The translations under genes and the position numbers were made by a program. This document shows positions 2,269 through 57,567 of a stretch of DNA of 64,000 nucleotides, piece by piece (the stretch's first letter is position 1; every line of letters starts with the position of its first letter). Origin of the DNA: Candidatus Moraniibacteriota bacterium (GTDB taxonomy: Bacteria > Patescibacteriota > Minisyncoccia > Moranbacterales > UBA1568). The stretch covers positions 4,486 to 68,485 of the forward strand of contig JAHFOO010000004.1 in the NCBI GenBank assembly GCA_023261645.1, given 5' to 3'. The notes below the pieces were generated by a model. The model saw nothing but the letters and a program-made list of their open reading frames with translations, was not told where the DNA came from and made no database searches.

Positions 2269-3256
2269 GGATAGTACGAATTGAGAAAGTGCTTCGGAGT
2301 ACTTTTTTCTTTTCCAGGGTGTTTTTTTATTGTCTAGAGAAGTGAGTGAAGAGAAAATTTATTTTCACTTCCGAACGATTGACGACATCAAGGAGTCCTA
2401 CTCCTTATTACCGATAATATTGTCAAAGAGTACCAAAGAAATTCTGAAGAAATGTTTGTTACTCTTTTCTTTTTTGTGAAAAGAGCGATACACATTTCCG
2501 CAGAAGTGCCTTAACAATTTATGTCTTTTTCAAAGGGGTCACCGATTGCCTGGCAGCGGAAAGCAATCCGATTTTTTTGAGATAGTCTAAATAATGTATG
2601 TATACCTGCGCACTTTTTATCCAAAGTGCAAGGTAGAAAAGGTCAAGCAAATTCAACGTAGAAAAAACAGTGCGTCGAATGCGCAAACATTCTTCACTGT
2701 TAACCGATTGTCCGTGAGAATTTTCTCTTCTGAGAGAATTTTTGCGGACAAGAGAAAAAAGAAGGTTACTTAACGCATGGTGTGGATGCCTTGACTGAAG
2801 CAAGCGATGAAGGACGTAGGAGGCTGCGATAAGCCTCGGGGAGCTGTCAACCAAGCTTTGATCCGGGGATTTCCGAATGGGGCAACCCTTCCACTTTTTA
2901 GTGGAAAACCGTATCTGAATTCATAGGATACGGTAGCGCACCCTGGGAATTGAAACATCTTAGTACCAGGAGGAAAAGAAATTAATAAAGATTCCGTAAG
3001 TAGTGGCGAGCGAACGCGGAATAGCCTAAACCACCGAGCTTGCTCGTGTGGGGTTGCAGGGCTTGTAGACTCGATTGATCGGGGTCGTCGTATTTCTGTT
3101 AGCAAAATGTTCTGGAAAGAACAACCAAAGAGGGTAATAGTCCCGTATGTGAAAACGAGAATACCACGATGTACAAGTACCTAAGTAGGGCGGGGCCGGA
3201 GAAACCCCGTTTGAATCTGGGAGCACTAACTTCCAAGGCTAAATATTGCTTCAGAT

Positions 3257-3293
<37 letters not shown>

Positions 3294-4721
3294 CATCCCG
3301 ATAAGGGAGATGAAATAGAACTGAAACTCCATGCTAACGAAGAGTCGGAGCCTTGTTCAATCAGGGTGACGGCGTGCTTTTTGCAGCACGATCCAACGAG
3401 TTAATTTTACGCGGCTGTCTAAGGGATGATGAGTTCCGGAGACATAGTGAAAGCGAGCCTGAATAGGGCGAAATAAGAGTCGCGTGGATTAGACCCGAAG
3501 CCAGACGAGCTACATATGAGCAGGGTGAAGCGTGGGTAAAACCACGTGGAGGCCCGCACCCACTTGCTGTGCAACTCAAGGGGATGACTTGTGTGTAGGG
3601 GAGAAATTCCAATCGAGTTTGGCAATAGCTGGTTCTCTCTGAAATAGCTTGAGGGCTAGCGTCTTGTAAATTGTACCCGAGGGGTAGAGCTACTGGATGA
3701 GAATTCGCGGCTTGCCGTAGGATTTTCAACCAAACTCCGAATACTCGCGGTATTTACCAAGGCAGTCAGTACTCCGGGGCTAAGCTCGGAGCACAAAAGG
3801 GAAAAAGCCCAGATCGTCAGCTAAGGTCCCAAAATCTGTATTAAGTGGGAAAGGAAGTGAAAACTCTTAGACACTTAGGAGGTTGGCTTAGAAGCAGCAA
3901 TCCTTTAAAGAGTGCGTAATAGCTCACTAATCTAGAGTTTTCGCGCCGACAATGTAACGGGGCTAAAATACAGTACCGAAGCTACGGACTGTATCGCAAG
4001 ATACAGTGGTAAGAGAGCGTTCCGTATGCGCTGAAGCAGAAGGGTGACCGACTGTGGAGCGTACGGAAGTGAGAATGTTGGAATGAGTAACCGCAATGAG
4101 GGTGAGAGCCCCTCACATCGAAAGTCTGAGGTTTCCTGGGCCATGGTGATCATCCCAGGGTTAGTCGGTCCTAAGGCCAGGCTGAAAAGCGTAGTCGATG
4201 GACATCAGGTTAATATTCCTGAACTATTTGTATATTCGAGGGAGAGACGCATCTCTGTACCTCTTGCCCCTTATTGGATTGGGGTTTGGTCTTCGAGGAC
4301 GTCGTACAGGCAAATCCGTACGGCACTAGTCCAATGGAGATTGACGAAGTTTCACCACGGTGAGATGAAGGAGAGGGAGCGGGGTGCCAGGAAAATCTTC
4401 TAAGGTTCGTATACAAATATCCGTACCGCAAACCGACACAGGTAGACTGGGCGAGTAGCCTAAGATGAACGGGAGAGAATTCGTTAAGGAACTCGGCAAA
4501 AAAGCTAGACGTAAGTTCGCAATATGTCTTGCCAACCGCTGAGGTTGGCCGCAGCAAAAGTTTTCCAAGCAACTGTTTATCAAAAACACAAGTCTCTGCA
4601 AACCCGCAAGGGGAAGTATAGGGGCTGACACCTGACCAGTGCTGGAACGTTAACGGGAGCGGTGCAAGCCAATCCCCGAAGCGCCAGTGAACGTCGGCGA
4701 TAACTATAATCGTCCTAAGGT

Positions 4722-4979
4722 TTCGAAACGCTCGCAAGAGAGTTTCGAAAGGACTGGGACGATTGTAGGAAGTGTGATAAATAGAAAAGAAGAGCTGCTT
4801 CGTTCTGTAGTAATATAGAACAGGTCCTAAAAAAATACATGGCCATATGCTGGAAATCTGCTTTGCAGACAATCAGCAGGAAAGATCCTACTTGGTAGGA
4901 AATCCTCAGAGACTATATGCCATGCTCCTATAATAAAATATAGGATGAAGATAGAGTCCTTCGCCGAAAAGGAGCGAAA
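4722..4979 (+). mobile_element. ORF-less insertion (putative group I intron) in 23S between CCUAAGGU and AGCGAAAUUCC (E. coli ~1931 region)
   Basis: ~258 nt with no counterpart in the conserved 23S core; upstream exon ends in U as expected for a group I 5' splice site. Confidence 0.5.
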
Positions 4980-5020
4980 AGCGAAATTCCTTGTCAGGTA
5001 AATTGTCAGAATTGCCTGAA

Positions 5021-5740
5021 TATCGTGGTAACATGATATAAGTAACCCGGCTTATAACGGTGGAGCCTAACACTTGTTGAAACAAGTTATGGTAATACCG
5101 TGGGAAGTCCCCTGAGAGACATTCGAAGGGTGACCCCGTAACGACTGATGCGAAAGCAGAGGCCCCCGCCTATTGCGCGGAGGCAACACGCCGGCTCTTA
5201 TCTAACCCAAAAGAAACATATGGATTTTGCCTCTTACATTTCCGGTTTTGTAGATGGTGAAGGATGCTTTAGTGTATCTTTTACTCTTCGTGCAAAACTG
5301 AAGACAGGAATAGAGGTTCGACCGAGTTTTTCGATCGGACAGAATAAGCGCAGTCTGAAGCTGTTACAAGAAATAGAACAGTTTTTCCGATGCGGGAGTA
5401 TACGCTTTTCGTCACGTGATAATTGCTATAAGTATGAAACACGCGATATAAGCGAGCTCATGCGGAAAATTATTCCGCATTTCGAAAAATTCCCTCTTCA
5501 GTCAGATAAAGCGAGAGATTTCAAAATTTTTCGTGATATATGCAAAGAGATATCTACTGCAAAACATCTCAATCCAGAGCATTTGAGACAGATTATTCAT
5601 CTGGCTTATCAAATGAATGGGTCGGGAAAGAGGAAATATCCGGAAGCAGAACTCCTACGTGTTCTGGATAAGATGAAGATATAGTCTAATGAAGCGTGAA
5701 AACGTGAGATAATATAAATGAAGTTCTGACGCGCATGAAA
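5021..5740 (+). mobile_element. group I-type intron in 23S (E. coli ~1951 region, CACGAAU|GGCGUAAUGA) carrying a LAGLIDADG homing endonuclease ORF
   Basis: ~720-nt insertion; flanking exon sequence restores ...CCTGAAT|GGTGTAATGA matching the conserved 23S; boundaries +/-5 nt. Confidence 0.6.
5220..5684 (+). CDS. single-motif LAGLIDADG homing endonuclease encoded inside the 23S intron
   Basis: MDFASYISGFVDGEGCF... LAGLIDADG-type motif, basic C-terminal region; ORF lies wholly inside the rRNA insertion. Confidence 0.8.
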   Translation: MDFASYISGFVDGEGCFSVSFTLRAKLKTGIEVRPSFSIGQNKRSLKLLQEIEQFFRCGSIRFSSRDNCYKYETRDISELMRKIIPHFEKFPLQSDKARDFKIFRDICKEISTAKHLNPEHLRQIIHLAYQMNGSGKRKYPEAELLRVLDKMKI

Positions 5741-6005
5741 GGTGTAATGACTTGGAAACTGTCTCAACGAACATCCCGGTGAAATTGCAATGACGGTAAA
5801 GATGCCGTCGACCTACAGCTAGACGAAAAGACCCCATGGAGCTTTACTATAACTTGGTATTGACTTAAAGTTTTTGCTGCCGAGCATAGGTGGGAGACTA
5901 TGAAGCACCCCTTCTGGGGGGTGTGGAGTCATCACTGGAATACCACTCTGCAGAGATTTTAATTCTAACCCACGGCCGTAATCCGGTCGGGGGACAGTGC
6001 CTGGT

Positions 6006-6037
<32 letters not shown>

Positions 6038-6259
6038 GTGCAACGGAGGCGTTTACAAAGGTTCTCTAGGTCCGGATGGAAATCGGACCGATAGCGCAAA
6101 AGCATAAGAGAGCTTTACTGAAAGACCGATCAGTCGATCAGTTACGAAAGTAGAATTTAGTGAACCGACCATTACTCGTAGGAGTGTGGAAGATCATCAG
6201 ATAAAAGTTACCCTGGGGATAACAGGCTGATCTTGCCCAAGAGTCCATATCGACGGCAA

Positions 6260-6297
<38 letters not shown>

Positions 6298-6507
6298 GTG
6301 GAGAAGCTCCCAAGGGTTTGGCTGTTCGCCAATTAAAGTGGTACGTGAGCTGGGTTCAAACCGTCGTGAGACAGGTTGGTTTCCTATCTGCTGTAGGCGT
6401 GTGTTGCTTGAGAGAACTCTTTCCTAGTACGAGAGGACCGGAAAGAACGAACCTCTGGTGTATCTGCTGTTCCGCCAGGAGCATCGCAGAGTAGCTACGT
6501 TCGGGTA

Positions 6508-6540
<33 letters not shown>

Positions 6541-6849
6541 AAGCTCAAGATAAGGCAACAGTATCAGTTTACTGATACAAGATTTCCTAGAAGATTACTA
6601 GGTTGATAGGCTGCAGATGTAAGTCCCGAGAGGGATTCAGTCAAGCAGTACTAATAAATTTATTCAACTTTCTTTTTTCTAATCTTGTTTTATTCTCGCA
6701 AGAGAGTAAAGTGAGTTACGGTTAGCAGTGAAGAGTGCTTGAAAATGGGGACACAACAACATTATAAATTAGACGACAATTTGGAGGCCCGCCTGCAACG
6801 CTATGCGTAGCATTGCGGGCAGGGGAATCCAATACATTTTTGAGAGCAG

Positions 6850-6966
6850 AGTATCCGGTGCTTCTAGCGAAGTGGAAACACCTGATTCCATACCGAACTC
6901 AGCAGTTAAGCACTTCAGCACCGATGGTAGCCTTCAGTGGCAAGAGTAGGACAGTGCCGGGTACTC
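6850..6966 (+). rRNA. rrf: 5S ribosomal RNA
   Basis: CCGAACTCAGCAGTTAAGC...GATGGTAGC...AGAGTAGGACAGTGCCGGG conserved 5S core about 180 nt after 23S 3' end; ends approximate. Confidence 0.8.
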
Positions 6967-6992
6967 TGAACTCAAAAATGTAACGGGGCAGG

Positions 6993-7055
6993 CTCAGCAG
7001 TTAAGCACTTCAGCACCGATGGTAGCCTTCAGTGGCAAGAGTAGGACAGTGCCGG
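6993..7055 (+). repeat. 63-nt perfect direct duplicate of the 3' two-thirds of the 5S rRNA (truncated 5S pseudo-copy)
   Basis: 6898-6960 is identical to 6993-7055. Confidence 0.85.
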
Positions 7056-7331
7056 GAACATTCCTCTTCAAAATTTTTCAAAAATTACAAAATACAATCT
7101 GAACAAGGTTGTTTTTTTGTTCTTGTTTTTGAGAAATGGAAAAATTTTTTGATCACAAGCAATCTTCCTGGGAGCCATTCATTCACCCAGCGGTGAATTT
7201 CTCTTATGGACTTTTTTCGATCCGTCGAAACGACGGCACCGTGCTCGAAAAAACTTCAACTCTCCCAGAAAGATTCTTGCGACAAAAAATTTCAGCAGAG
7301 ACAAAAGATTGCTTTTGCTTAGAAAATACAC

Positions 7332-9520: not shown

Positions 9521-9559
9521 CTGCCTGTCATCCCTACGGCAGATAAACCGGTAGGCAGG
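9521..9559 (+). repeat. copy of dispersed GC-rich palindromic repeat (long form), followed by T-run; probable terminator of ftsW
   Basis: CTGCCTGTCATCCCTACGGCAGATAAACCGGTAGGCAGG then TTTTTT; same family at 42183 and 57480. Confidence 0.7.
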
Positions 9560-12861: not shown

Positions 12862-13893
12862 ATGTATAGCGTTATTCTGTGCGGTGGGTCAGGGACACGA
12901 TTGTGGCCGATGAGTCGAAAAAATTTTCCGAAACAGTTTTTGAAACTCTATGGAGACACGTCTCTTTTGCAGGAGACATACCTTCGTATTCGAGAACTTC
13001 TTCCATCGACACATATTTTCTTCGTCACGAACAGAGAGAATTCCCGCAATGTTTCAGAACAGATCCGTGATATTGAGAAAGATTTCAAGGAGGAACAGAT
13101 TATCATCGAACCGGCAGCACGCAATACCGCACCGGCCATTGCTCTTGCGATGAAATACTTGACTGAAAGGGTCGGAATAGATGCAGGAGAATCTGTACTT
13201 TTTCTTCCATCCGATCATTATATCGGGAACAAGAATGTGTATCTGAAGACGATAGAGCGGGCCCTTAGTGCCAAAGAGGATCGCATCGGAACAATCGGTA
13301 TCGTACCGACAAAGGCCGAGACAGGGTATGGATATATCCGCAAGGGAGGAAAGGAATCCAATGACTCTTTCTCCGTACTCGAATTCAAAGAGAAGCCAGA
13401 TAGGGCGACCGCAGAAAAATATCTCGCTTCGGGAGAATATCTCTGGAATTCCGGTATGTATTTTTTCAATGCACGGACGTTCTTCCAGGAACTGAGAGCG
13501 TATGCGCCGGAAATAGCTTCTTTCTTCGAAGATGATTTCGCAACGATCTTGACCAAGTATGCTTCTGCTCCGGCCGTATCCATCGATTATGCCGTATCGG
13601 AGAAATCGAAGCGTGTCGTCGTCTTTGCAGGGGATTTCGGTTGGAGTGATATCGGATCATTTGATAGCCTGGCAGATATTATCGGACACAATCCGGCCGC
13701 GAGACACATCGGTATCGATTCGAAGAACGTGTATACGTACAGTACGGAAAATCGTCTGATAGCGACTATCGGCGTGGAGGATTTGATTGTCGTGGAGACC
13801 AAGGGCAGTATCCTCATTTGCAAGCGCGGACATGCCGAAGATGTCAAAAAAGTAGTGGAAAAATTGAAAGAGAATGAAGAAAAAGAGCTTTAA
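12862..13893 (+). CDS. manC: mannose-1-phosphate guanylyltransferase (GDP-mannose pyrophosphorylase)
   Basis: SVILCGGSGTRLWPMSR...PKQF N-terminal nucleotidyltransferase signature; ATG at 12862 preferred over upstream TTG at 12799. Confidence 0.85.
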   Translation: MYSVILCGGSGTRLWPMSRKNFPKQFLKLYGDTSLLQETYLRIRELLPSTHIFFVTNRENSRNVSEQIRDIEKDFKEEQIIIEPAARNTAPAIALAMKYLTERVGIDAGESVLFLPSDHYIGNKNVYLKTIERALSAKEDRIGTIGIVPTKAETGYGYIRKGGKESNDSFSVLEFKEKPDRATAEKYLASGEYLWNSGMYFFNARTFFQELRAYAPEIASFFEDDFATILTKYASAPAVSIDYAVSEKSKRVVVFAGDFGWSDIGSFDSLADIIGHNPAARHIGIDSKNVYTYSTENRLIATIGVEDLIVVETKGSILICKRGHAEDVKKVVEKLKENEEKEL

Positions 13894-14088
13894 ACAAAGC
13901 ATATATCCGTATCATTATTGACAGAGGCTAAAAGGTGTGCTAAAATAAGTAATCGAGAAACTTGGGTCGATTGACTCTTGTTTTGAAAAGCCTTCTTCAT
14001 TTTTGAACAGATCTTTCCCTGTTAGAAACAAAAGGGATTCTTTTTGTAGAAGTCGATAAAAAATCCTTCGTAGTGTAAACGAAGTATG

Positions 14089-14154
14089 GCCGAGATGGCG
14101 GAATTTCTACCTGTCGGTAGACAGGCCTGCTGCCGGCAGGCAGGGGTAGACGCA
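14089..14154 (+). pseudogene. tRNA-Leu-like 5' fragment (acceptor + D arm) interrupted by palindromic repeat copies
   Basis: GCCGAGATGGCGGAATT[tctacctgtcggtagacaggcctgctgccggcaggcagg]GGTAGACGCA; bracket removed gives canonical tRNA-Leu 5' half; no anticodon or T arm follows. Confidence 0.55.
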
Positions 14155-14181
14155 TAGTAAAGAAACAAGATAGTATGTGGT

Positions 14182-14436
14182 ATGAAATGTTTTGTATATG
14201 CTTTGAAAAGTGATGTGGATGGCAGTTTGTATATAGGGATGTCATCCGATGTTTCAAAAAGATTGAAACAGCATAATAGTGGTATGACTTCCTCAAACCG
14301 TCATCGTACTCCATTTAAATTATTTTATAGTAAAGAATTTGAAACTACGGTAGAAGCAAGAAAATATGAGAAATATTTGAAATCAGGTATAGGAAGAGAG
14401 TTTTTAAAGAATTTACGAGATCAAAAGTCTCATTAA
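14182..14436 (+). CDS. small GIY-YIG nuclease-family protein (UPF0213/YhbQ-like)
   Basis: VYALKSDVDGSLYIGMSSDVSKRLKQHN ... E...ARKYEKYLK GIY-YIG catalytic-core pattern; 84 aa. Confidence 0.7.
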   Translation: MKCFVYALKSDVDGSLYIGMSSDVSKRLKQHNSGMTSSNRHRTPFKLFYSKEFETTVEARKYEKYLKSGIGREFLKNLRDQKSH

Positions 14437-14442
14437 TTGAAA

Positions 14443-14526
14443 GCCCTGGTGGCGGAATTGGTAGACGCACTAGCTTCAGGTGCTAGCGTGAGCAATCACA
14501 TGGGAGTTCGAGTCTCCCCTAGGGCA
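14443..14526 (+). tRNA. tRNA-Leu (anticodon CAG), long variable arm, no encoded CCA
   Basis: cloverleaf: acceptor gccctgg/ctagggc, anticodon loop cuuCAGgu, 16-nt variable arm, T-loop gttcgagtc. Confidence 0.9.
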
Positions 14527-14708
14527 CAACGTAATATAATTTTCCCTTGATAAAAAGAGAGGAGATTCATCTTTCGTGTAATTCATTCTTGCTCTGGATA
14601 ACAAAACACCGAGGTAAGAAAACTAATCAATCTTGCGAATATGCCTCTGCTCTGGTTTCATTATGAAACGTATGTGACGAGAGGCGGTTCGGAGAATAAG
14701 TAAACAGT

Positions 14709-16787
14709 ATGCAAACGAACAATTCGTTTCAGAAGAACCAAAATGCGAGCAGGCCAGCATCGAATAGACCGAGTCTAGACGAACCTCGTAACACTTTTGG
14801 TAGTGGGAATCAAAGTGCTTCCCAAACAGGAGGCCAAAAATCAACCGCCGGTGCTTTCGAAGGCATCGTCGCTCACGCTCAGGCACCTCGTGCCCTGCAC
14901 AAGACGTATGAGCGTACACAACCGTCATCCGGCACTCGGCCGACAGTGAAAGCTGTGACAAAACCGGAGGTACGCAAAACGCATTCTCCTGTGAAACCAC
15001 AGGGACAGAAATCTCCCGGCAAGAAGAGTGGACAAAAAAACAACCGTCGTTTTCCGATGCCGATGAAAAGTCGTTTGGAATCGACGTATAATGGCGTCAG
15101 TATACCGACTCTCGGAGAGAAACGTCTGCGTATCATCCCGCTTGGTGGTCAGGAAGAAGTCGGTCGCAATATGACTGTCTTCGAATATGGAAGTGATATC
15201 GTCATCATCGATATGGGACTGCAGTTTCCGGAAGAAGATATGCCGGGAATCGATTATATCATTCCGAATGCCAGTTATCTGAAAGGTAAAGAAAAGAATA
15301 TCCGTGGCGTGATTTTCACACACGGTCATCTCGACCATATCGGCGCGGCACCGCTTCTTTTGAAACAGCTCGGTTATCCGCCGGTCGTTTCTCGTGATCT
15401 GACATTGGCACTCATCAAACACAAAGTCGAAGACCAGGAAAAAGGAGCAGCCAGTCGTCTCAAGATGGTACGGATCAAAGATGTCAATGACCGTATCAAG
15501 CTCGGCGCTTTCGAAGCACGTTTCTTCGAAGTGGAACACTCCATTATGGATGCCATCGGTATCACTCTTTTGACACCGGTAGGCACAGTTGTCCATATGG
15601 GGGATTGGACGATCGCCAATGATCCGATCGAGGAAAAACAGATTTCTTATAAGCATCTGGCTGATCTCCCTCGTCCGACTATTCTGATGCTCGAGAGTTT
15701 GGGAGCCCTGAAAAAAGGTCTGCCACCATCAGAACAAGAAGTACATCAGAACTTGAAGAATCTCATCAGAAGTGTTCCTGGACGACTGATTATCGGGACA
15801 TTTGCCTCGCAGATCCGTCGTATCAGCTATCTCATCGAGTATGCCGAACAACTTGGCAAGAAAGTCGCTCTCGAAGGGTATAGTATGAAAATGAATATTG
15901 AGGTAGCCAAAGAACTTGGCTATATCAAGGTCAAGAAAGATACGCTCATCACTGTGAATGATATCCACAAGTATGCGGACAATCAGGTGGTGGTGATTTG
16001 TACGGGAGCTCAAGGTGAACTCAATGCCGCGCTCTCTCGCATCGTGACGGACAACCACCGCTTCATCAAATTGCAGAAGAACGATACGATCGTTTTCTCT
16101 TCCTCGGTCATTCCTGGGAATGAGCGGACGATTCAGAGATTGAAGGACAACTTGTATCGTAAGTGTGATAACGTTATCCACAGTGATATTATGGAAATCC
16201 ACATCGGTGGACATTCGACGGCGCAAGGGATGGAAGAGATGCTTCGTCAGGTACAGCCGACCTATTTCCTGCCGGTCTACGCCAACCATTACTTTCTGAA
16301 AGAAGCGGCCAAAATCGCTTTTCGTATGGGCTTTCCACAGCAGAATGTTTTCGTTCTGGATAATGGAGGTGTCTTCGAACTCGATGAGAAGAACGTAGCG
16401 ACGGTACTCAAAGAAAAAGCGGATACGAGCTATGTCTTCATCGACGGTCTGGGTGTCGGAGATATCGGACACGTCGTACTTCGCGATCGGCAGGTGCTTG
16501 CGCAGGACGGTATGGTGGTCATTACCGCCATCATCGATTCCAAAACCAAGAATATCGTCGGTAATATCCAAATCACATCGCGCGGATTCATCCATGTGAA
16601 AGAGAATTTCGATCTCGTGAACGAAACAAAACGCAAAGTGGAAAAAGTGGTGAAGGAAAATACCTCCAAAGATTCTTCCATCGATTGGGATCTCGTCCGC
16701 AATCAGCTCCGCGAAGTCATCGGTCAGTTCCTGTTCACCAAAACAGAGCGTCGTCCGATGGTGCTTCCGGTAGTCATCGAAGTGTAA
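14709..16787 (+). CDS. rnj: ribonuclease J (metallo-beta-lactamase / beta-CASP) with about 120-aa low-complexity N-terminal extension
   Basis: HGHLDHIGA motif, beta-CASP and C-terminal domains; Q/S/P/K-rich extension precedes the canonical start (alternative start MPMKSR at 15063). Confidence 0.85.
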   Translation: MQTNNSFQKNQNASRPASNRPSLDEPRNTFGSGNQSASQTGGQKSTAGAFEGIVAHAQAPRALHKTYERTQPSSGTRPTVKAVTKPEVRKTHSPVKPQGQKSPGKKSGQKNNRRFPMPMKSRLESTYNGVSIPTLGEKRLRIIPLGGQEEVGRNMTVFEYGSDIVIIDMGLQFPEEDMPGIDYIIPNASYLKGKEKNIRGVIFTHGHLDHIGAAPLLLKQLGYPPVVSRDLTLALIKHKVEDQEKGAASRLKMVRIKDVNDRIKLGAFEARFFEVEHSIMDAIGITLLTPVGTVVHMGDWTIANDPIEEKQISYKHLADLPRPTILMLESLGALKKGLPPSEQEVHQNLKNLIRSVPGRLIIGTFASQIRRISYLIEYAEQLGKKVALEGYSMKMNIEVAKELGYIKVKKDTLITVNDIHKYADNQVVVICTGAQGELNAALSRIVTDNHRFIKLQKNDTIVFSSSVIPGNERTIQRLKDNLYRKCDNVIHSDIMEIHIGGHSTAQGMEEMLRQVQPTYFLPVYANHYFLKEAAKIAFRMGFPQQNVFVLDNGGVFELDEKNVATVLKEKADTSYVFIDGLGVGDIGHVVLRDRQVLAQDGMVVITAIIDSKTKNIVGNIQITSRGFIHVKENFDLVNETKRKVEKVVKENTSKDSSIDWDLVRNQLREVIGQFLFTKTERRPMVLPVVIEV

Positions 16788-21507: not shown

Positions 21508-21660
21508 CACGTTCATTCCAGTTTTCTTTTGGGAGACTTGTTTTCCCAAAGCGGGCATGGTTTTTTGCTTACTTGAAAGCAAAAAGAGCGAAGGGGAAAC
21601 AGGAGTGAGTGAAACGGCTGGATGAGCGAGCGTGCTCCAAAAAGAAAGCTGGAATGAAAC
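21508..21660. repeat. structured ~153-nt element with ~22-nt terminal inverted repeats (MITE-like or ncRNA), copy 1, 130 nt upstream of ychF
   Basis: about 93% identical to reverse complement of 26996-27148; ends cacgttcattccagttttctttt / aaaagaaagctggaatgaaac are inverted repeats. Confidence 0.75.
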
Positions 21661-26995: not shown

Positions 26996-27148
26996 CACGT
27001 TCCTTTCGGTTTTCTTTTGAGAGCACACTCGCTCACCCAGCCGTTTCACTCACTCCTGTTTCCCCTTCGCTCTTTTTGCTCTTGAAAAGCAAAAAACCAT
27101 GCCCGCTTTGGGAAAACAAGTCTCTCAAAAGAAAATCGAAAGGAACAA
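26996..27148. repeat. structured ~153-nt TIR element, copy 2 (inverted relative to copy 1), between groEL and pilB
   Basis: reverse complement aligns with 21508-21660 over the full length. Confidence 0.75.
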
Positions 27149-34269: not shown

Positions 34270-36447
34270 TTATTTAAGTTTATGAGGATTGTGATTGGGA
34301 CAGACTTTGTTTGAACATCTTTCGGGGATAGTTTTTGTCCCTTCCATCATCAGTGATTTGCATAGCGGACAGAGATTGCCAGTCGGTTTGGCTTTGATGG
34401 CATTTTTACAGTCGGGATAGTTGGAACAGCTGTAGAAAATACCGAAGCGGCCGCGACGTTCGGTCATTTTCCCCTGCCTACCGGCAGGCAGGCCTTGCGC
34501 ACACGTAGGGCAGGTGATGTCGGTTGTCGGGAGTGCGTTCTCATCTTTTTTGATGAATTTACATTTCGGATAATTGGAACAGGCGATGAATTTCCCGAAT
34601 TTCCCGGTACGTTCCATCAGTTTCCCATCCTTGCATTTCGGACAAGCCTCGCCGGTTTCCTTCGGCGGTTCGACTACTTTGCCTTCTTCGGTCAGAGCGC
34701 CGTCACACTCCGGGAAACGTGAACAGCTGAAGAATTTGCCGTTGCGAGCCAGTTTGATAACCATTTTCGCTCCGCATTTCGGACAGACGGTACTCTCCGG
34801 AGCATCGCCCATATTGGTGACTTTTTCTATCTTGTCTTTGCTCTTCACTTCTTTGGCGAATGGCAGGTAGAAATCTTTGAGCGTTTTCTCGTATTCACGA
34901 GTGCCTGCAGCGATATCATCGAGCTTGTTCTCCATATCGGCAGTAAATGTTTCTGATACCATATTTTCGAAGTGTTTGAAGAGGAAATCATCGACGACCA
35001 TACCGGTATCCGTCACACTGAGTGCTTTGCCGACCTTTTCGACATAGCCACGGTCTTGGATGGTTTTTACGATGGATGCATAGGTGCTCGGTCTGCCGAT
35101 TCCACGCTTCTCGAGTTCTTTGACGAGGCCGGCTTCAGAATATCGTTGTGGTGGTTCGGTTTGTTTCTCTTCGGATGTGATTTTTTCCAGATCGAGCGGA
35201 TCAGAGGTGGCGACTATGGGCACTTCGACGTCGTCTCCGCGCGAAGCTTTGTCGAGAGCGAGCCATCCGTCTTTGATCAAATGTGAACCACTGACTGAAA
35301 AATTGGGGAGCGCTCGATCGGTCGTATTGGCGATAATTTTCGTACGAAGTATTTCTGCATCACTCATCTGTGAAGCGAGTGTTCTCGTACGGATAAGCGT
35401 ATAGAGCTTCTTTTCGTCTTCGGTTGCGCCGGCGGTTTTCTTGGATGCATCCGTAGGCCGGATGGCTTCGTGGGCTTCCTGGGCATTTTTACTCTTGGTC
35501 TTGTAGTGACGGACAGAGAGATATTTTTCACCGAATTCTTTTTTCACGACAGCGATGATTTCCGGCAGGGCAGTTTCGGAAAGAGAGATACTGTCTGTGC
35601 GCATATAAGTGATGAACCCATTTTCGTACAATTTCTGAGCTGCACGCATCGTACGGGAGGGGGACATCCCGAGCCGTGAACTGCCTGCCTGTTGAAGTGT
35701 CGATGTCGTGAACGGCGCATACGGACGACGGAGAGCCTCCGTTGTCTTCACTTCAACTATTTCCCATTGTTTTTTCTTAGCAAGATCAAGAATATTTTCT
35801 GTGGTTTTTTTGTCTTTCGGTTGTTCGGTACAAGTGAAAACTATCTTTTCTTTCTTTTCCGTTATGCATTCTGCCGTAATGACGAAATATGCTTCAGGAA
35901 TGAAGCTTTTGATTTCTTTTTCTCGGAGGGCGAGGATGTGGAGCGCTGGAGATTGTACCCGTCCGGCAGAGAGACCATAACGAACTTTTTTCCAGATGAG
36001 TCCGGAGAGATCGTATCCGACCAATCGGTCGAGGACACGTCTTGCTTCTTGGGCTTTGCGGAGATTGATATCGAGATCACCTGGATGAGCGACGGCTTCT
36101 TTGACGGCTTTCTCGGTGATTTCGTAGAAAAGGACACGCTTGGGTTTCTTGATACCACAGGTCTCAGCCACATGCCAAGCGATAGCCTCACCTTCGCGGT
36201 CAGGGTCGCTTGCAAGGAGGACAGTGTCGCTTTTTTTGACGAGTGATTTGATATCTCTGACGACGGATTCTTTACCGGGAGAAATGATATAGCGTGGAAT
36301 GAAACCACCCTCGATGTCGATAGCATCTTTGTTCGATTTTGGGAGGTCGCGGACGTGGCCGACAGAGGCGACGACTTTGTACTCGCCACCGAGATACTTC
36401 TCGATGGTTTTGGCTTTGGATGGAGATTCTACTATCAGTAACTTCAT
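34270..36447 (-). CDS. topA: DNA topoisomerase I with C-terminal zinc-ribbon repeats
   Basis: TOPRIM (MKLLIVESPSKAKTI), active-site Tyr region, four C4 zinc ribbons. Confidence 0.92.
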   Translation of the reverse strand: MKLLIVESPSKAKTIEKYLGGEYKVVASVGHVRDLPKSNKDAIDIEGGFIPRYIISPGKESVVRDIKSLVKKSDTVLLASDPDREGEAIAWHVAETCGIKKPKRVLFYEITEKAVKEAVAHPGDLDINLRKAQEARRVLDRLVGYDLSGLIWKKVRYGLSAGRVQSPALHILALREKEIKSFIPEAYFVITAECITEKKEKIVFTCTEQPKDKKTTENILDLAKKKQWEIVEVKTTEALRRPYAPFTTSTLQQAGSSRLGMSPSRTMRAAQKLYENGFITYMRTDSISLSETALPEIIAVVKKEFGEKYLSVRHYKTKSKNAQEAHEAIRPTDASKKTAGATEDEKKLYTLIRTRTLASQMSDAEILRTKIIANTTDRALPNFSVSGSHLIKDGWLALDKASRGDDVEVPIVATSDPLDLEKITSEEKQTEPPQRYSEAGLVKELEKRGIGRPSTYASIVKTIQDRGYVEKVGKALSVTDTGMVVDDFLFKHFENMVSETFTADMENKLDDIAAGTREYEKTLKDFYLPFAKEVKSKDKIEKVTNMGDAPESTVCPKCGAKMVIKLARNGKFFSCSRFPECDGALTEEGKVVEPPKETGEACPKCKDGKLMERTGKFGKFIACSNYPKCKFIKKDENALPTTDITCPTCAQGLPAGRQGKMTERRGRFGIFYSCSNYPDCKNAIKAKPTGNLCPLCKSLMMEGTKTIPERCSNKVCPNHNPHKLK
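34473..34492. repeat. 20-nt perfect-family palindrome CCTGCCTACCGGCAGGCAGG embedded in-frame in the topA zinc-ribbon coding region
   Basis: minus-strand translation ...CPTCAQGLPAGRQGKMTERRG; the repeat encodes LPAGRQG. Confidence 0.8.
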
Positions 36448-36503
36448 ATGGTTCAGTTTTGAGGTAAAATATGCCTGGCTTTTTTAATAAAGTTTAGTGT
36501 GAT

Positions 36504-38095: not shown

Positions 38096-38115
38096 CCTGC
38101 CTGTCGGCAGACAGG
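38096..38115. repeat. palindromic repeat copy (short form) between tRNA genes
   Basis: CCTGCCTGTCGGCAGACAGG. Confidence 0.75.
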
Positions 38116-41417: not shown

Positions 41418-41434
41418 TGCAGATGTATTTCCTA

Positions 41435-41470
41435 CGAGAGGAGTCAATGACTCCCTCGTTTTTTATTTTT
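41435..41470 (+). terminator. rho-independent terminator, identical copy 1 (cgagaggagtcaatgactccctcg + T8)
   Basis: perfect hairpin and U-tract; duplicated at 42143. Confidence 0.75.
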
Positions 41471-42119: not shown

Positions 42120-42142
42120 GTCGTGGAGGATGATGGATTATA

Positions 42143-42174
42143 CGAGAGGAGTCAATGACTCCCTCGTTTTTTAT
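42143..42174 (+). terminator. rho-independent terminator, identical copy 2
   Basis: acgagaggagtcaatgactccctcgttttttatt identical to 41434-41466. Confidence 0.75.
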
Positions 42175-42182
42175 TACCAAAC

Positions 42183-42221
42183 ACTGTCTGTCATGTCTAC
42201 GGCGGATAAATCGGTAGACAG
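42183..42221 (+). repeat. palindromic repeat copy (long form) upstream of membrane-protein gene promoter
   Basis: CTGTCTGTCATGTCTACGGCGGATAAATCGGTAGACAGG. Confidence 0.75.
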
Positions 42222-42306
42222 GGAGAGTGAGTATCGGCCCGATTCGACTCGAATGAATGCCCGCTATTCGTGGTATAATGAACCTGTAATTTGTTAAGAT
42301 TTCTTT

Positions 42307-50053: not shown

Positions 50054-50073
50054 GATTTCGAGACCTGCCTGCC
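50054..50073. repeat. perfect 20-nt palindrome CCTGCCTGCCGGCAGGCAGG (short-form repeat) after sigma-factor gene
   Basis: exact palindrome centred on CCGG. Confidence 0.8.
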
Positions 50074-50231
50074 GGCAGGCAGGTGAAAATTATGCAGAGT
50101 GCGAAGGCCTATCGCGTGATAAGCCGACAATCGATAAGTAATTTTCAGCCGAAATCAGGTACTTTTATACGACAAGTAGTATTTATTTTTTTAGCCTATA
50201 CATTCAGATTTTTAACTGGCTCTAGAACGTT

Positions 50232-57426: not shown

Positions 57427-57520
57427 CCTGCCTGCCGGTAGGCAGGAAAACGAGAGTAAACTTTCGTTTCACTCACTTCCCTGTCTGCCGATTTATCTGC
57501 CGTAGGCACGACAGGCAGGG
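57427..57520. repeat. compound locus of palindromic repeats: short form CCTGCCTGCCGGTAGGCAGG plus inverted long form, separated by a hairpin
   Basis: 57427-57446 short form; 57480-57520 reverse-complement of long form seen at 9521 and 42183. Confidence 0.8.
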
Positions 57521-57567
57521 TTTGGTAATAAAAATTCATTGAGAGGGATATTTTGGTTTGAATACAT

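Follow-up and report, generated by a model that had tools for sequence, protein, structure and literature searches.

Genomic islands and prophages that target transfer RNA (tRNA) genes carry tyrosine integrases, duplicate the 3' part of the tRNA and are kilobases long. Slx1 nucleases cut branched and hairpin DNA, and for the related UPF0213 proteins we know of no reported linkage to tRNA genes or to a palindrome. In REP/REPIN systems with their RAYT enzymes, many dispersed short GC-rich palindromes accompany a single small enzyme gene (PMC2817692, PMC3116915). SegB of phage T4 is described as a GIY-YIG homing enzyme that is encoded in a tRNA gene cluster, has a recognition site that includes a conserved tRNA stem-loop motif, and is inherited together with the neighbouring tRNA genes at the expense of the recipient alleles (PMC2330249); a second report links SegB to segmental amplification (PMC13096335). 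Here, we analyse a stretch of 64,000 nucleotides (nt) from Candidatus Moraniibacteriota bacterium (assembly GCA_023261645.1, contig JAHFOO010000004.1, positions 4,486 to 68,485 of the forward strand), which in its entirety we refer to as the window, and in it a locus at 14089-14527 where the gene for a small GIY-YIG nuclease lies between a palindrome-split 5' fragment of a tRNA-Leu gene and an intact tRNA-Leu gene. We suggest, with a probability of roughly 0.55, that this arrangement is a homing-type selfish cassette of ~350 bp that lives inside tRNA transcription units. No description of the cassette or of its palindrome was found in the searchable full-text literature, the coverage of which leaves out most subscription journals.

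Results

The cassette begins with a 27-nt copy of the 5' end of a tRNA-Leu gene (hereafter, the stub) that reads in two pieces on the plus strand. The first piece, GCCGAGATGGCGGAATT at 14089-14105, corresponds to tRNA positions 1-17, i.e. the 5' strand of the acceptor stem, the 5' strand of the D stem and the start of the D loop, and is identical to positions 1-17 of tRNA-Leu(CAG) in the relatives L238 and L242. After position 17 (17|18) the stub is interrupted in the D loop by a 39-nt double palindrome at 14106-14144, which like the other palindromes described here has no strand assigned and which reads as TCTA, the 16-nt palindrome CCTGTCGGTAGACAGG and CCTGCTGCCGGCAGGCAGG, a 19-nt copy of the 20-nt palindrome CCTGCCTGCCGGCAGGCAGG with one base deleted. 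The insertion folds into a strong hairpin (-40 kcal/mol for a 126-nt region, z -2.76). The second piece, GGTAGACGCA at 14145-14154, supplies positions 18-27, the remainder of the D arm; tRNA similarity stops at 14154, and the stub has neither an anticodon arm nor a T arm. It is followed on the plus strand by (i) a spacer at 14155-14181 without similarity to tRNA, the 5' leader of the nuclease open reading frame (ORF), (ii) the ORF itself at 14182-14436, which encodes an 84-amino acid (aa) GIY-YIG nuclease of the UPF0213/Slx1-like branch (Pfam PF01541, E 1.6e-15), and (iii) after a gap of 6 nt behind the stop codon, an intact tRNA-Leu(CAG) at 14443-14527 with the acceptor stem GCCCTGG/CTAGGGC (ARAGORN; Rfam, 51.2 bits; alignment with relatives). 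The intact tRNA lies ~350 nt downstream of the stub, from which it differs at three of the seven acceptor positions, and positions 8-27 of the two are identical. A preliminary description, made from the sequence of the region, had reported the split tRNA-Leu fragment, the repeat, the GIY-YIG gene and the intact tRNA with its GCCCTGG acceptor, and all of them are correct to the base. The composite split-stub pattern is found a single time in the window and is absent from 100 shuffled sequences.

The preliminary description looked to a covariance model for support of the fragment. No match was obtained for the stub even at E<=10, and ARAGORN finds the downstream tRNA alone; this result is uninformative and no refutation because 27 split bases are expected to escape detection. 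The identity of the stub rests on alignment, in which it matches the intact tRNA at 20/20 positions and the tRNA of a relative at 27/27. In an Rfam scan of 13880-14720 at E<=10, the matches were the tRNA and one sub-threshold snoRNA chance match (17.8 bits against a threshold of 44); no described Rfam family covers the stub or the palindrome in the window region or in the seven other loci scanned, and there is no group I intron around the ORF (NCBIfam grpIintron_endo, 23.8 bits, cut-off 56). No integrase gene lies between ManC and RNase J, and the whole insert is ~350 bp long. A promoter-like site on the plus strand at 13918-13946 (TTGACA, 17 nt, TG-n-TAAAAT; 11/12 in a consensus scan, extended -10) is the only match of that scan ahead of the tRNA, and the motif TTGACA...TAnAAT is also present upstream of tRNA-Leu in the relatives L238, L240 and L241. 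On this basis, the site is probably the resident tRNA-Leu promoter, which would now drive the stub, the ORF and the tRNA.

The RNase J encoded in the window is most similar to that of Candidatus Moranbacteria. Four related Moranbacteria lineages (RNase J identity 95, 87, 81 and 79%) carry a single tRNA-Leu(CAG) and no GIY-YIG gene at the site, and all four keep the gene order SBP-PGI-(ManC)-tRNA-Leu(CAG)-RNase J-TrpRS-PGM. The nuclease gene is therefore an insertion, and a tandem tRNA-Leu array, the alternative raised in the preliminary description, is rejected because the syntenic comparison uncovered no relative with two tRNA-Leu genes at this place. Two tRNA alleles occur at the site: the 95% and 79% relatives have type A (GCCGAGA...TTTCGGC), the 87% and 81% relatives type B (GCCTTGG...CTAAGGC). 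The stub in the window is of type A and identical at 27/27 positions to the tRNA-Leu(CAG) of the closest relative, L238, at the syntenic site. The intact tRNA is B-like and divergent, with a compensatory change of the 4-69 pair and a variable arm that is absent from all four relatives, and it differs from the type-A allele in the acceptor, the variable arm and the T stem; the DNA directly downstream of it is again closest to the 95% relative. The simplest reading of these sequences is that a resident type-A gene would have been broken in the D arm and that everything from the palindrome through a complete foreign tRNA would have been copied in. Zunongwangia pacifica (L020) compared with Z. atlantica (L018) has the same pattern, with a stub of the sister's resident type and an intact tRNA of another type. 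In this flanking-marker pattern the tRNA beside the ORF is divergent and the stub and the outer flanks match the closest relative, from which we infer the direction of a possible co-conversion of flanking markers with the gene. Thus, the idea in the preliminary description that an element had entered a tRNA-Leu gene is supported, given the empty site in relatives and a stub that is the 5' end of the resident allele; its other proposals, on the tandem array and on the decay of the fragment and the origin of the repeat considered below, are not. In the 95% relative (L238/L239, ~2650-2740) the intact tRNA-Leu is preceded, 76 nt upstream, by a degenerate palindrome, CCTGCCTGTCGGCAGATAGG, and then GGTAGAC, without an ORF; this may be what is left of an older cassette at the site.

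The arrangement is general. With the family alignment as query, one genome per species was searched, which gave 79 loci from more than 10 phyla, including Patescibacteria, Bacteroidota, Acidobacteriota, Omnitrophota, Planctomycetota, Ignavibacteria and Chlorobiota. In 73 of the 79 loci the nearest neighbour is a tRNA gene, located within 430 nt and without exception on the same strand; in 64 loci the tRNA is within 100 nt of the ORF, usually 0-40 nt after the stop codon. The partner tRNAs are of seven types (Arg, Leu, Gly, Asn, Lys, Thr and Cys). Upstream, the order in most loci is tRNA positions 1 to x, the 20-nt palindrome CCTGCCTGCCGGCAGGCAGG or a variant, positions x+1 to y, and the ORF, with the split point x usually in the D loop or D arm and y between 26 and 55. 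In 24 of the 30 loci that could be scored, positions 1 to x of the stub match the intact tRNA next to it with 100% identity. The fragment in the window is therefore not "decayed", as the preliminary description had it, because its layout is the conserved design of the 79 loci. A mirror geometry, in which the intact tRNA and the ORF are followed by a 3' tRNA copy that the palindrome splits at the anticodon loop or T arm, is found at flavobacterial tRNA-Arg(TCG) and acidobacterial tRNA-Gly loci. At L018 and L008, 316-bp units are repeated in tandem and end in one intact tRNA, and in Z. atlantica (L018) four such units precede one intact tRNA-Arg; arrays of this kind would be expected if the intact copy stays a target, or if the repeats recombine. 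Loci that appeared to lack the palindrome have variant GC-rich palindromes at the same place, and these lineage-specific variants keep the symmetry. In 60 of 80 loci the ORF has a perfect GC-rich palindrome no more than 130 nt away, compared with 1.3% of control windows.

The relationships among the nucleases follow the tRNA. The nearest neighbour of a nuclease is associated with the same tRNA amino-acid type in 64 of 74 loci, and the nearest neighbour from another phylum shares the tRNA type in 53 of 74, compared with 22.3 +/- 4.9 expected in a permutation test that is partly confounded by sampling. Judged from these sequence comparisons, nuclease similarity tracks tRNA identity better than host taxonomy. 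A second Moraniibacteriota genome (L243) carries a 69%-identical ORF in the context rplS-tRNA-Leu(GAG)-tRNA-Val with the same composite insertion, TCTA-CCTGTCGGTAGACAGG-CCTG..CTGCCGGCAGGCAGG, at the same tRNA position 17|18, and one cassette lineage therefore occupies two different tRNA-Leu genes. Base-for-base identical cassettes were recovered from three independent samples (L080-L082); two of these contigs end inside the intact tRNA-Leu, and the region is therefore prone to assembly breaks.

Two further loci have unusual tRNAs. On a viral contig (L234, ~480-960) the stub, palindrome and ORF are followed by a downstream tRNA copy that turns unrelated after the anticodon stem and in which ARAGORN detects no tRNA; this copy may contain a further insertion. 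At L001 (3534-3798) a group I intron match (59.4 bits) occupies the place where the sister loci L002 and L003 have tRNA-Phe(GAA), which suggests an intron-interrupted tRNA within the tRNA cluster of the cassette.

The 84-aa protein matches Pfam PF01541 with 57.6 bits (cut-off 22.6). In an alignment of 22 family members Y6, Y17, R27, H31 and E63 are invariant or at least 90% conserved, and the family has its own conserved C-terminal motif, KSGxGREFL. The best hits in a sequence search of the PDB are the UPF0213 proteins EF2693 and BH0048 (1ywl, E 1.3e-10; 1zg2, E 2.6e-10), with SLX1 at E 9e-7. The AlphaFold 2 model (pLDDT 88.4) has three strands and three helices, and Foldseek searches with it return BH0048 (1zg2, E 2.6e-5), Slx1 (TM 0.68) and the catalytic domain of I-TevI. 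Sequence similarity and the predicted fold place the protein in the UPF0213/Slx1 branch of structure-specific nucleases. Beyond the catalytic domain there is a C-terminal helix and nothing else: the protein has no separate DNA-binding domain and lacks the C-terminal zinc-finger (RING/PHD-type) domain of Slx1, the 84 residues corresponding to the catalytic domain only. A profile search against 1.84 billion representatives gave 5,583 clusters (50% identity) at E<=1e-10. Several gene calls among these have an N-terminal read-through, e.g. VAELAD-LPAGRQA, which is the translated tRNA stub and palindrome.

The palindrome also occurs on its own. The window contains seven matches to the palindrome family, compared with 0.18 expected, and palindrome scans located five copies: the copy in the cassette, one between two tRNA-Met genes (38096-38115) around which no convincing tRNA stub was found, a perfect 20-nt intergenic copy (50064-50083), an intergenic copy with one mismatch (57427-57446), and one in the topoisomerase I gene (34473-34492; minus-strand ORF 34270-36483). 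The last is an in-frame 21-nt insertion that adds seven residues in a zinc-ribbon loop (CPTC-AQGLPAGRQG-KMTERRG compared with CPxC-xKG-xM in homologues); the aligned topA homologues lack it, except for the Patescibacteria homologue P0175, which has a similar QAGLPARNAQAG insertion in the same loop. On a viral contig (L227, 2239-2330) the variable region of a complete tRNA-Met contains the 20-nt palindrome as a long extra arm, and with the palindrome taken out a normal 72-nt tRNA results. The topA insertion and this extra arm show that the palindrome is an insertional element in its own right.

Exact copies of CCTGCCTGCCGGCAGGCAGG are found on at least 120 metagenome contigs and on 35 viral contigs. 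Of the 127 metagenome copies listed, only eight are within 400 nt of the GIY-YIG gene, and a tRNA is present within 500 nt of 11. The flanks of the copies are not conserved and the boundaries are sharp at 20 nt; therefore, the unit is the 20-mer alone. No gene family other than this GIY-YIG family recurs near the solo palindromes. A preference for the loops of pre-existing hairpins was not detected (Mann-Whitney p = 0.14), with a weak tail at scores >=9 (3.2% compared with 0.5%). A test for target-site duplication gave flank identity over 1 nt in 59 cases against 37.3 expected, which is not universal, and no signal at 2-5 nt. The preliminary description had noted that GGTAGAC in the repeat matches the tRNA D loop and had proposed that the repeat derives from tRNA or is targeted to it by this homology; this proposal fails, given that the consensus CCTGCCTGCCGGCAGGCAGG lacks the motif, that the insertion point of the palindrome varies between the D, anticodon and T arms of different tRNAs and that most copies lie away from tRNAs. 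Three repeats of 39-57 nt in the window (9521-9559, 42168-42224 and 57478-57534) have ends resembling palindrome halves (CCTGTCTGCC...GACAGGCAGG) around a ~19-nt interior, and they may be a longer relative of the 20-mer in which the halves serve as terminal inverted repeats.

Other features of the window include a 23S rRNA gene at 2759-6676 that spans 3,918 nt for a model of 2,925 positions and contains a group I intron (4802-4974) and further inserted sequence; a tandem duplication of the 3' two-thirds of the 5S rRNA (6898-6979 and 6993-7074; 82 nt, 90% identical); inverted repeats of ~140 nt (21511-21658 and 27000-27146; 90-92% complementary) that enclose a 5.3-kb segment and each contain their own 25-nt hairpin; and a perfect 35-nt direct repeat (41433-41467 and 42141-42175) with the terminator-like hairpin TACGAGAGGAGTCAATGACTCCCTCGTTTTTTATT, the two copies being 708 nt apart.

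Discussion

The sequences show the anatomy of the cassette, the empty sites, the allele pattern, the recurrence of the design, the arrays and the co-variation of nuclease and tRNA type; for the homing-type cassette we infer a nuclease activity, a position of the break, co-transcription with the tRNA and a role for the palindrome. Homing would start with a break at 17|18, within the DNA that encodes the D loop of an empty tRNA-Leu(CAG) gene or close to it, and repair from a filled allele, likely by homing-type gene conversion, would bring in the GIY-YIG ORF together with the palindrome, a short piece of tRNA and a full tRNA-Leu as replacement. The first 17-27 bases of the resident gene would remain as the stub, and the incoming intact tRNA would keep the host viable. 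Having no promoter of its own, the ORF would be read from the resident tRNA promoter, and the usual processing of tRNA ends would release the tRNA from the joint transcript. Given the conservation of tRNA sequences, cassette lineages that are flanked by homology to a tRNA would be able to cross between genomes, and even phyla, that share that tRNA, and the same homology would permit occasional jumps to sister isoacceptors. Most likely, the GC-rich palindrome at the break point is a cis site recognised by the Slx1-like nuclease, e.g. in hairpin or cruciform form: branched and hairpin DNA is cut by Slx1-type enzymes, which makes a cruciform-forming palindrome a plausible substrate, and the palindrome variants keep their symmetry.

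Several points weigh against this scheme. Known GIY-YIG homing enzymes have a separate DNA-binding domain, which the bare 84-aa protein lacks. A classical homing event destroys its target by the insertion; here the intact tRNA persists as a potential target, so that immunity is unexplained, and the tandem arrays could be a consequence of this. A simple chimera of donor positions 1-17 and resident positions 18-85 does not account for the intact tRNA, the variable arm, T stem and 3' acceptor of which are unlike the resident allele, and conversion must therefore have spanned the whole tRNA. The identity of the resident allele is deduced from relatives that between them carry both allele types, and the palindrome with GGTAGAC in L238 points to a local history more complex than one event. 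Finally, among the matches listed, neither the GIY-YIG gene nor a tRNA is close to ~94% of the exact metagenome copies; the palindrome therefore leads an independent existence, for which homing offers no explanation.

This last point leads to a possible, though doubtful, alternative that is centred on the palindrome and resembles REP/RAYT: the 20-nt palindrome would be the mobile unit, the GIY-YIG protein would cut and disperse it, the gene would sit beside a master copy for which the tRNA nest offers a safe and highly expressed harbour, and the duplicated stub would be a by-product of palindrome insertion and repair. The abundance of exact copies on metagenome and viral contigs, with their sharp 20-nt boundaries and unconserved flanks, fits this alternative well, as do the clean in-frame insertion in topA, the extra arm in the viral tRNA-Met, the longer elements in the window that end in palindrome halves, the co-variation of palindrome variants with nuclease lineage, and the finding that this GIY-YIG family is the sole gene family recurring near solo copies. 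It fits less well that the gene is found near only 8 of the 127 metagenome copies listed and that there is no consistent target duplication, and to our knowledge no GIY-YIG enzyme transposes DNA. Moreover, palindrome dispersal alone fails to explain why the nucleases are related by tRNA type or how a whole foreign tRNA allele arrived. The two accounts overlap and are not mutually exclusive.

The other explanations are considerably less probable. The tight same-strand linkage, which probably entails co-transcription, the conserved catalytic residues and the existence of UPF0213 relatives that are ordinary chromosomal genes would also be in line with a domesticated host function, i.e. a housekeeping DNA-repair or RNA-processing nuclease that is co-expressed with tRNAs and for which the stubs are incidental; however, we regard this as improbable given that the gene is absent from the same site in four related lineages, is patchily distributed over phyla with a similarity that follows tRNA type rather than taxonomy, forms tandem arrays of up to four copies and is also present on viral contigs. 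Two tRNA-Leu-like sequences in the same orientation could in principle go back to a tandem duplication whose upstream member was lost to the insertion of a repeat and a deletion, the GIY-YIG gene between the two being unrelated. This is very improbable: it is contradicted by the single tRNA-Leu at the site in all relatives examined, the stub and the intact tRNA are different alleles, and the order stub-palindrome-ORF-tRNA recurs with seven tRNA types at 79 loci. Least probable of all is that the locus is what an integrase-type genomic island or prophage with tRNA-Leu as its attachment site has left behind. Although integration into tRNA genes is a classic pattern and the locus does contain a partial tRNA repeat, the anatomy contradicts it, in that there is no integrase, the insert is only ~350 bp, the 5' and not the 3' end is duplicated, the repeat is split by a palindrome, and the design recurs without integrases.

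More broadly, and tentatively, the 20-nt palindrome and the ~80-aa Slx1-like GIY-YIG nuclease may together represent a previously unrecognised class of minimal mobile DNA whose nuclease is expressed from hijacked tRNA promoters. The nuclease might then recognise the palindrome hairpin or cruciform and drive both its own homing into tRNA genes and the dispersal of solo palindromes, including in-frame insertions in essential genes, across Patescibacteria, Bacteroidota, Acidobacteriota, other phyla and their viruses. If so, a very small and very widespread selfish element has so far gone unnoticed, one that survives inside an essential gene by supplying a spare copy, borrows the strongest promoters of the cell and uses the conservation of tRNAs as a passport between phyla. 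Its existence would account for 5' fragments of tRNAs, for unusual "LPAGRQ" extensions at the N termini of gene calls and for assemblies that break next to tRNAs; the enzyme-palindrome pair would be a candidate for a new structure- or sequence-specific nuclease system, and the cassette could serve to mark horizontal transfer between uncultured bacteria. The insertion in frame in topA shows that the repeat is able to remodel essential proteins.

Comparison with known systems

The full set of defining features of the SegB-type, REP/RAYT or tRNA-island families is not reproduced by the cassette, which resembles each of them in part. Its closest known analogue is SegB of T4; for the repeat it is REP/RAYT, and for the restoration of the tRNA the tRNA-targeting islands. 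With SegB it shares a GIY-YIG gene among tRNA genes, the presence or absence of the gene at a conserved site among relatives is a trait of free-standing homing endonuclease genes, and the amplification linked to SegB recalls the tandem arrays at L018 and L008. The Seg proteins have a separate DNA-binding region, whereas the cassette protein belongs to the UPF0213/Slx1 branch and consists of the catalytic domain alone (84 aa); Seg genes belong to T4-like phages, whereas the cassettes are chromosomal and, not being confined to phages, occur in more than 10 bacterial phyla. The accessible description of SegB mentions neither a partial tRNA duplication nor a 20-nt palindrome, both of which are features of the cassettes.

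At the level of the protein, the UPF0213/YhbQ-type proteins and Slx1 (1ywl, 1zg2, 7cq2 and 4xlg) are the best matches in sequence and fold and have the same catalytic core, and the Foldseek listing also includes 7cq4, in which Slx1-Slx4 is bound to 5'-flap DNA. The cassette protein is ~23-37% identical to this group and differs from it by its KSGxGREFL motif; unlike Slx1, it has neither a zinc-finger domain nor an Slx4 partner.

Like the tRNA-targeting islands, the cassette is inserted into a tRNA gene, restores an intact tRNA by means of a copy that it carries and leaves a tRNA fragment as a direct repeat. Unlike them, it has no integrase, is ~350 bp long and duplicates the 5' part of the tRNA (the 3' part in the mirror geometry). 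With REP/RAYT it has in common dispersed GC-rich palindromes, an adjacent small enzyme gene and palindrome variants that co-vary with the enzyme lineage. However, RAYT is an IS200/IS605-like tyrosine (HUH) transposase and the cassette enzyme a GIY-YIG nuclease, and the cassette system is set apart by a perfect 20-mer that is identical across phyla, by palindrome copies inside genes and by an enzyme gene that is nested in a tRNA gene.

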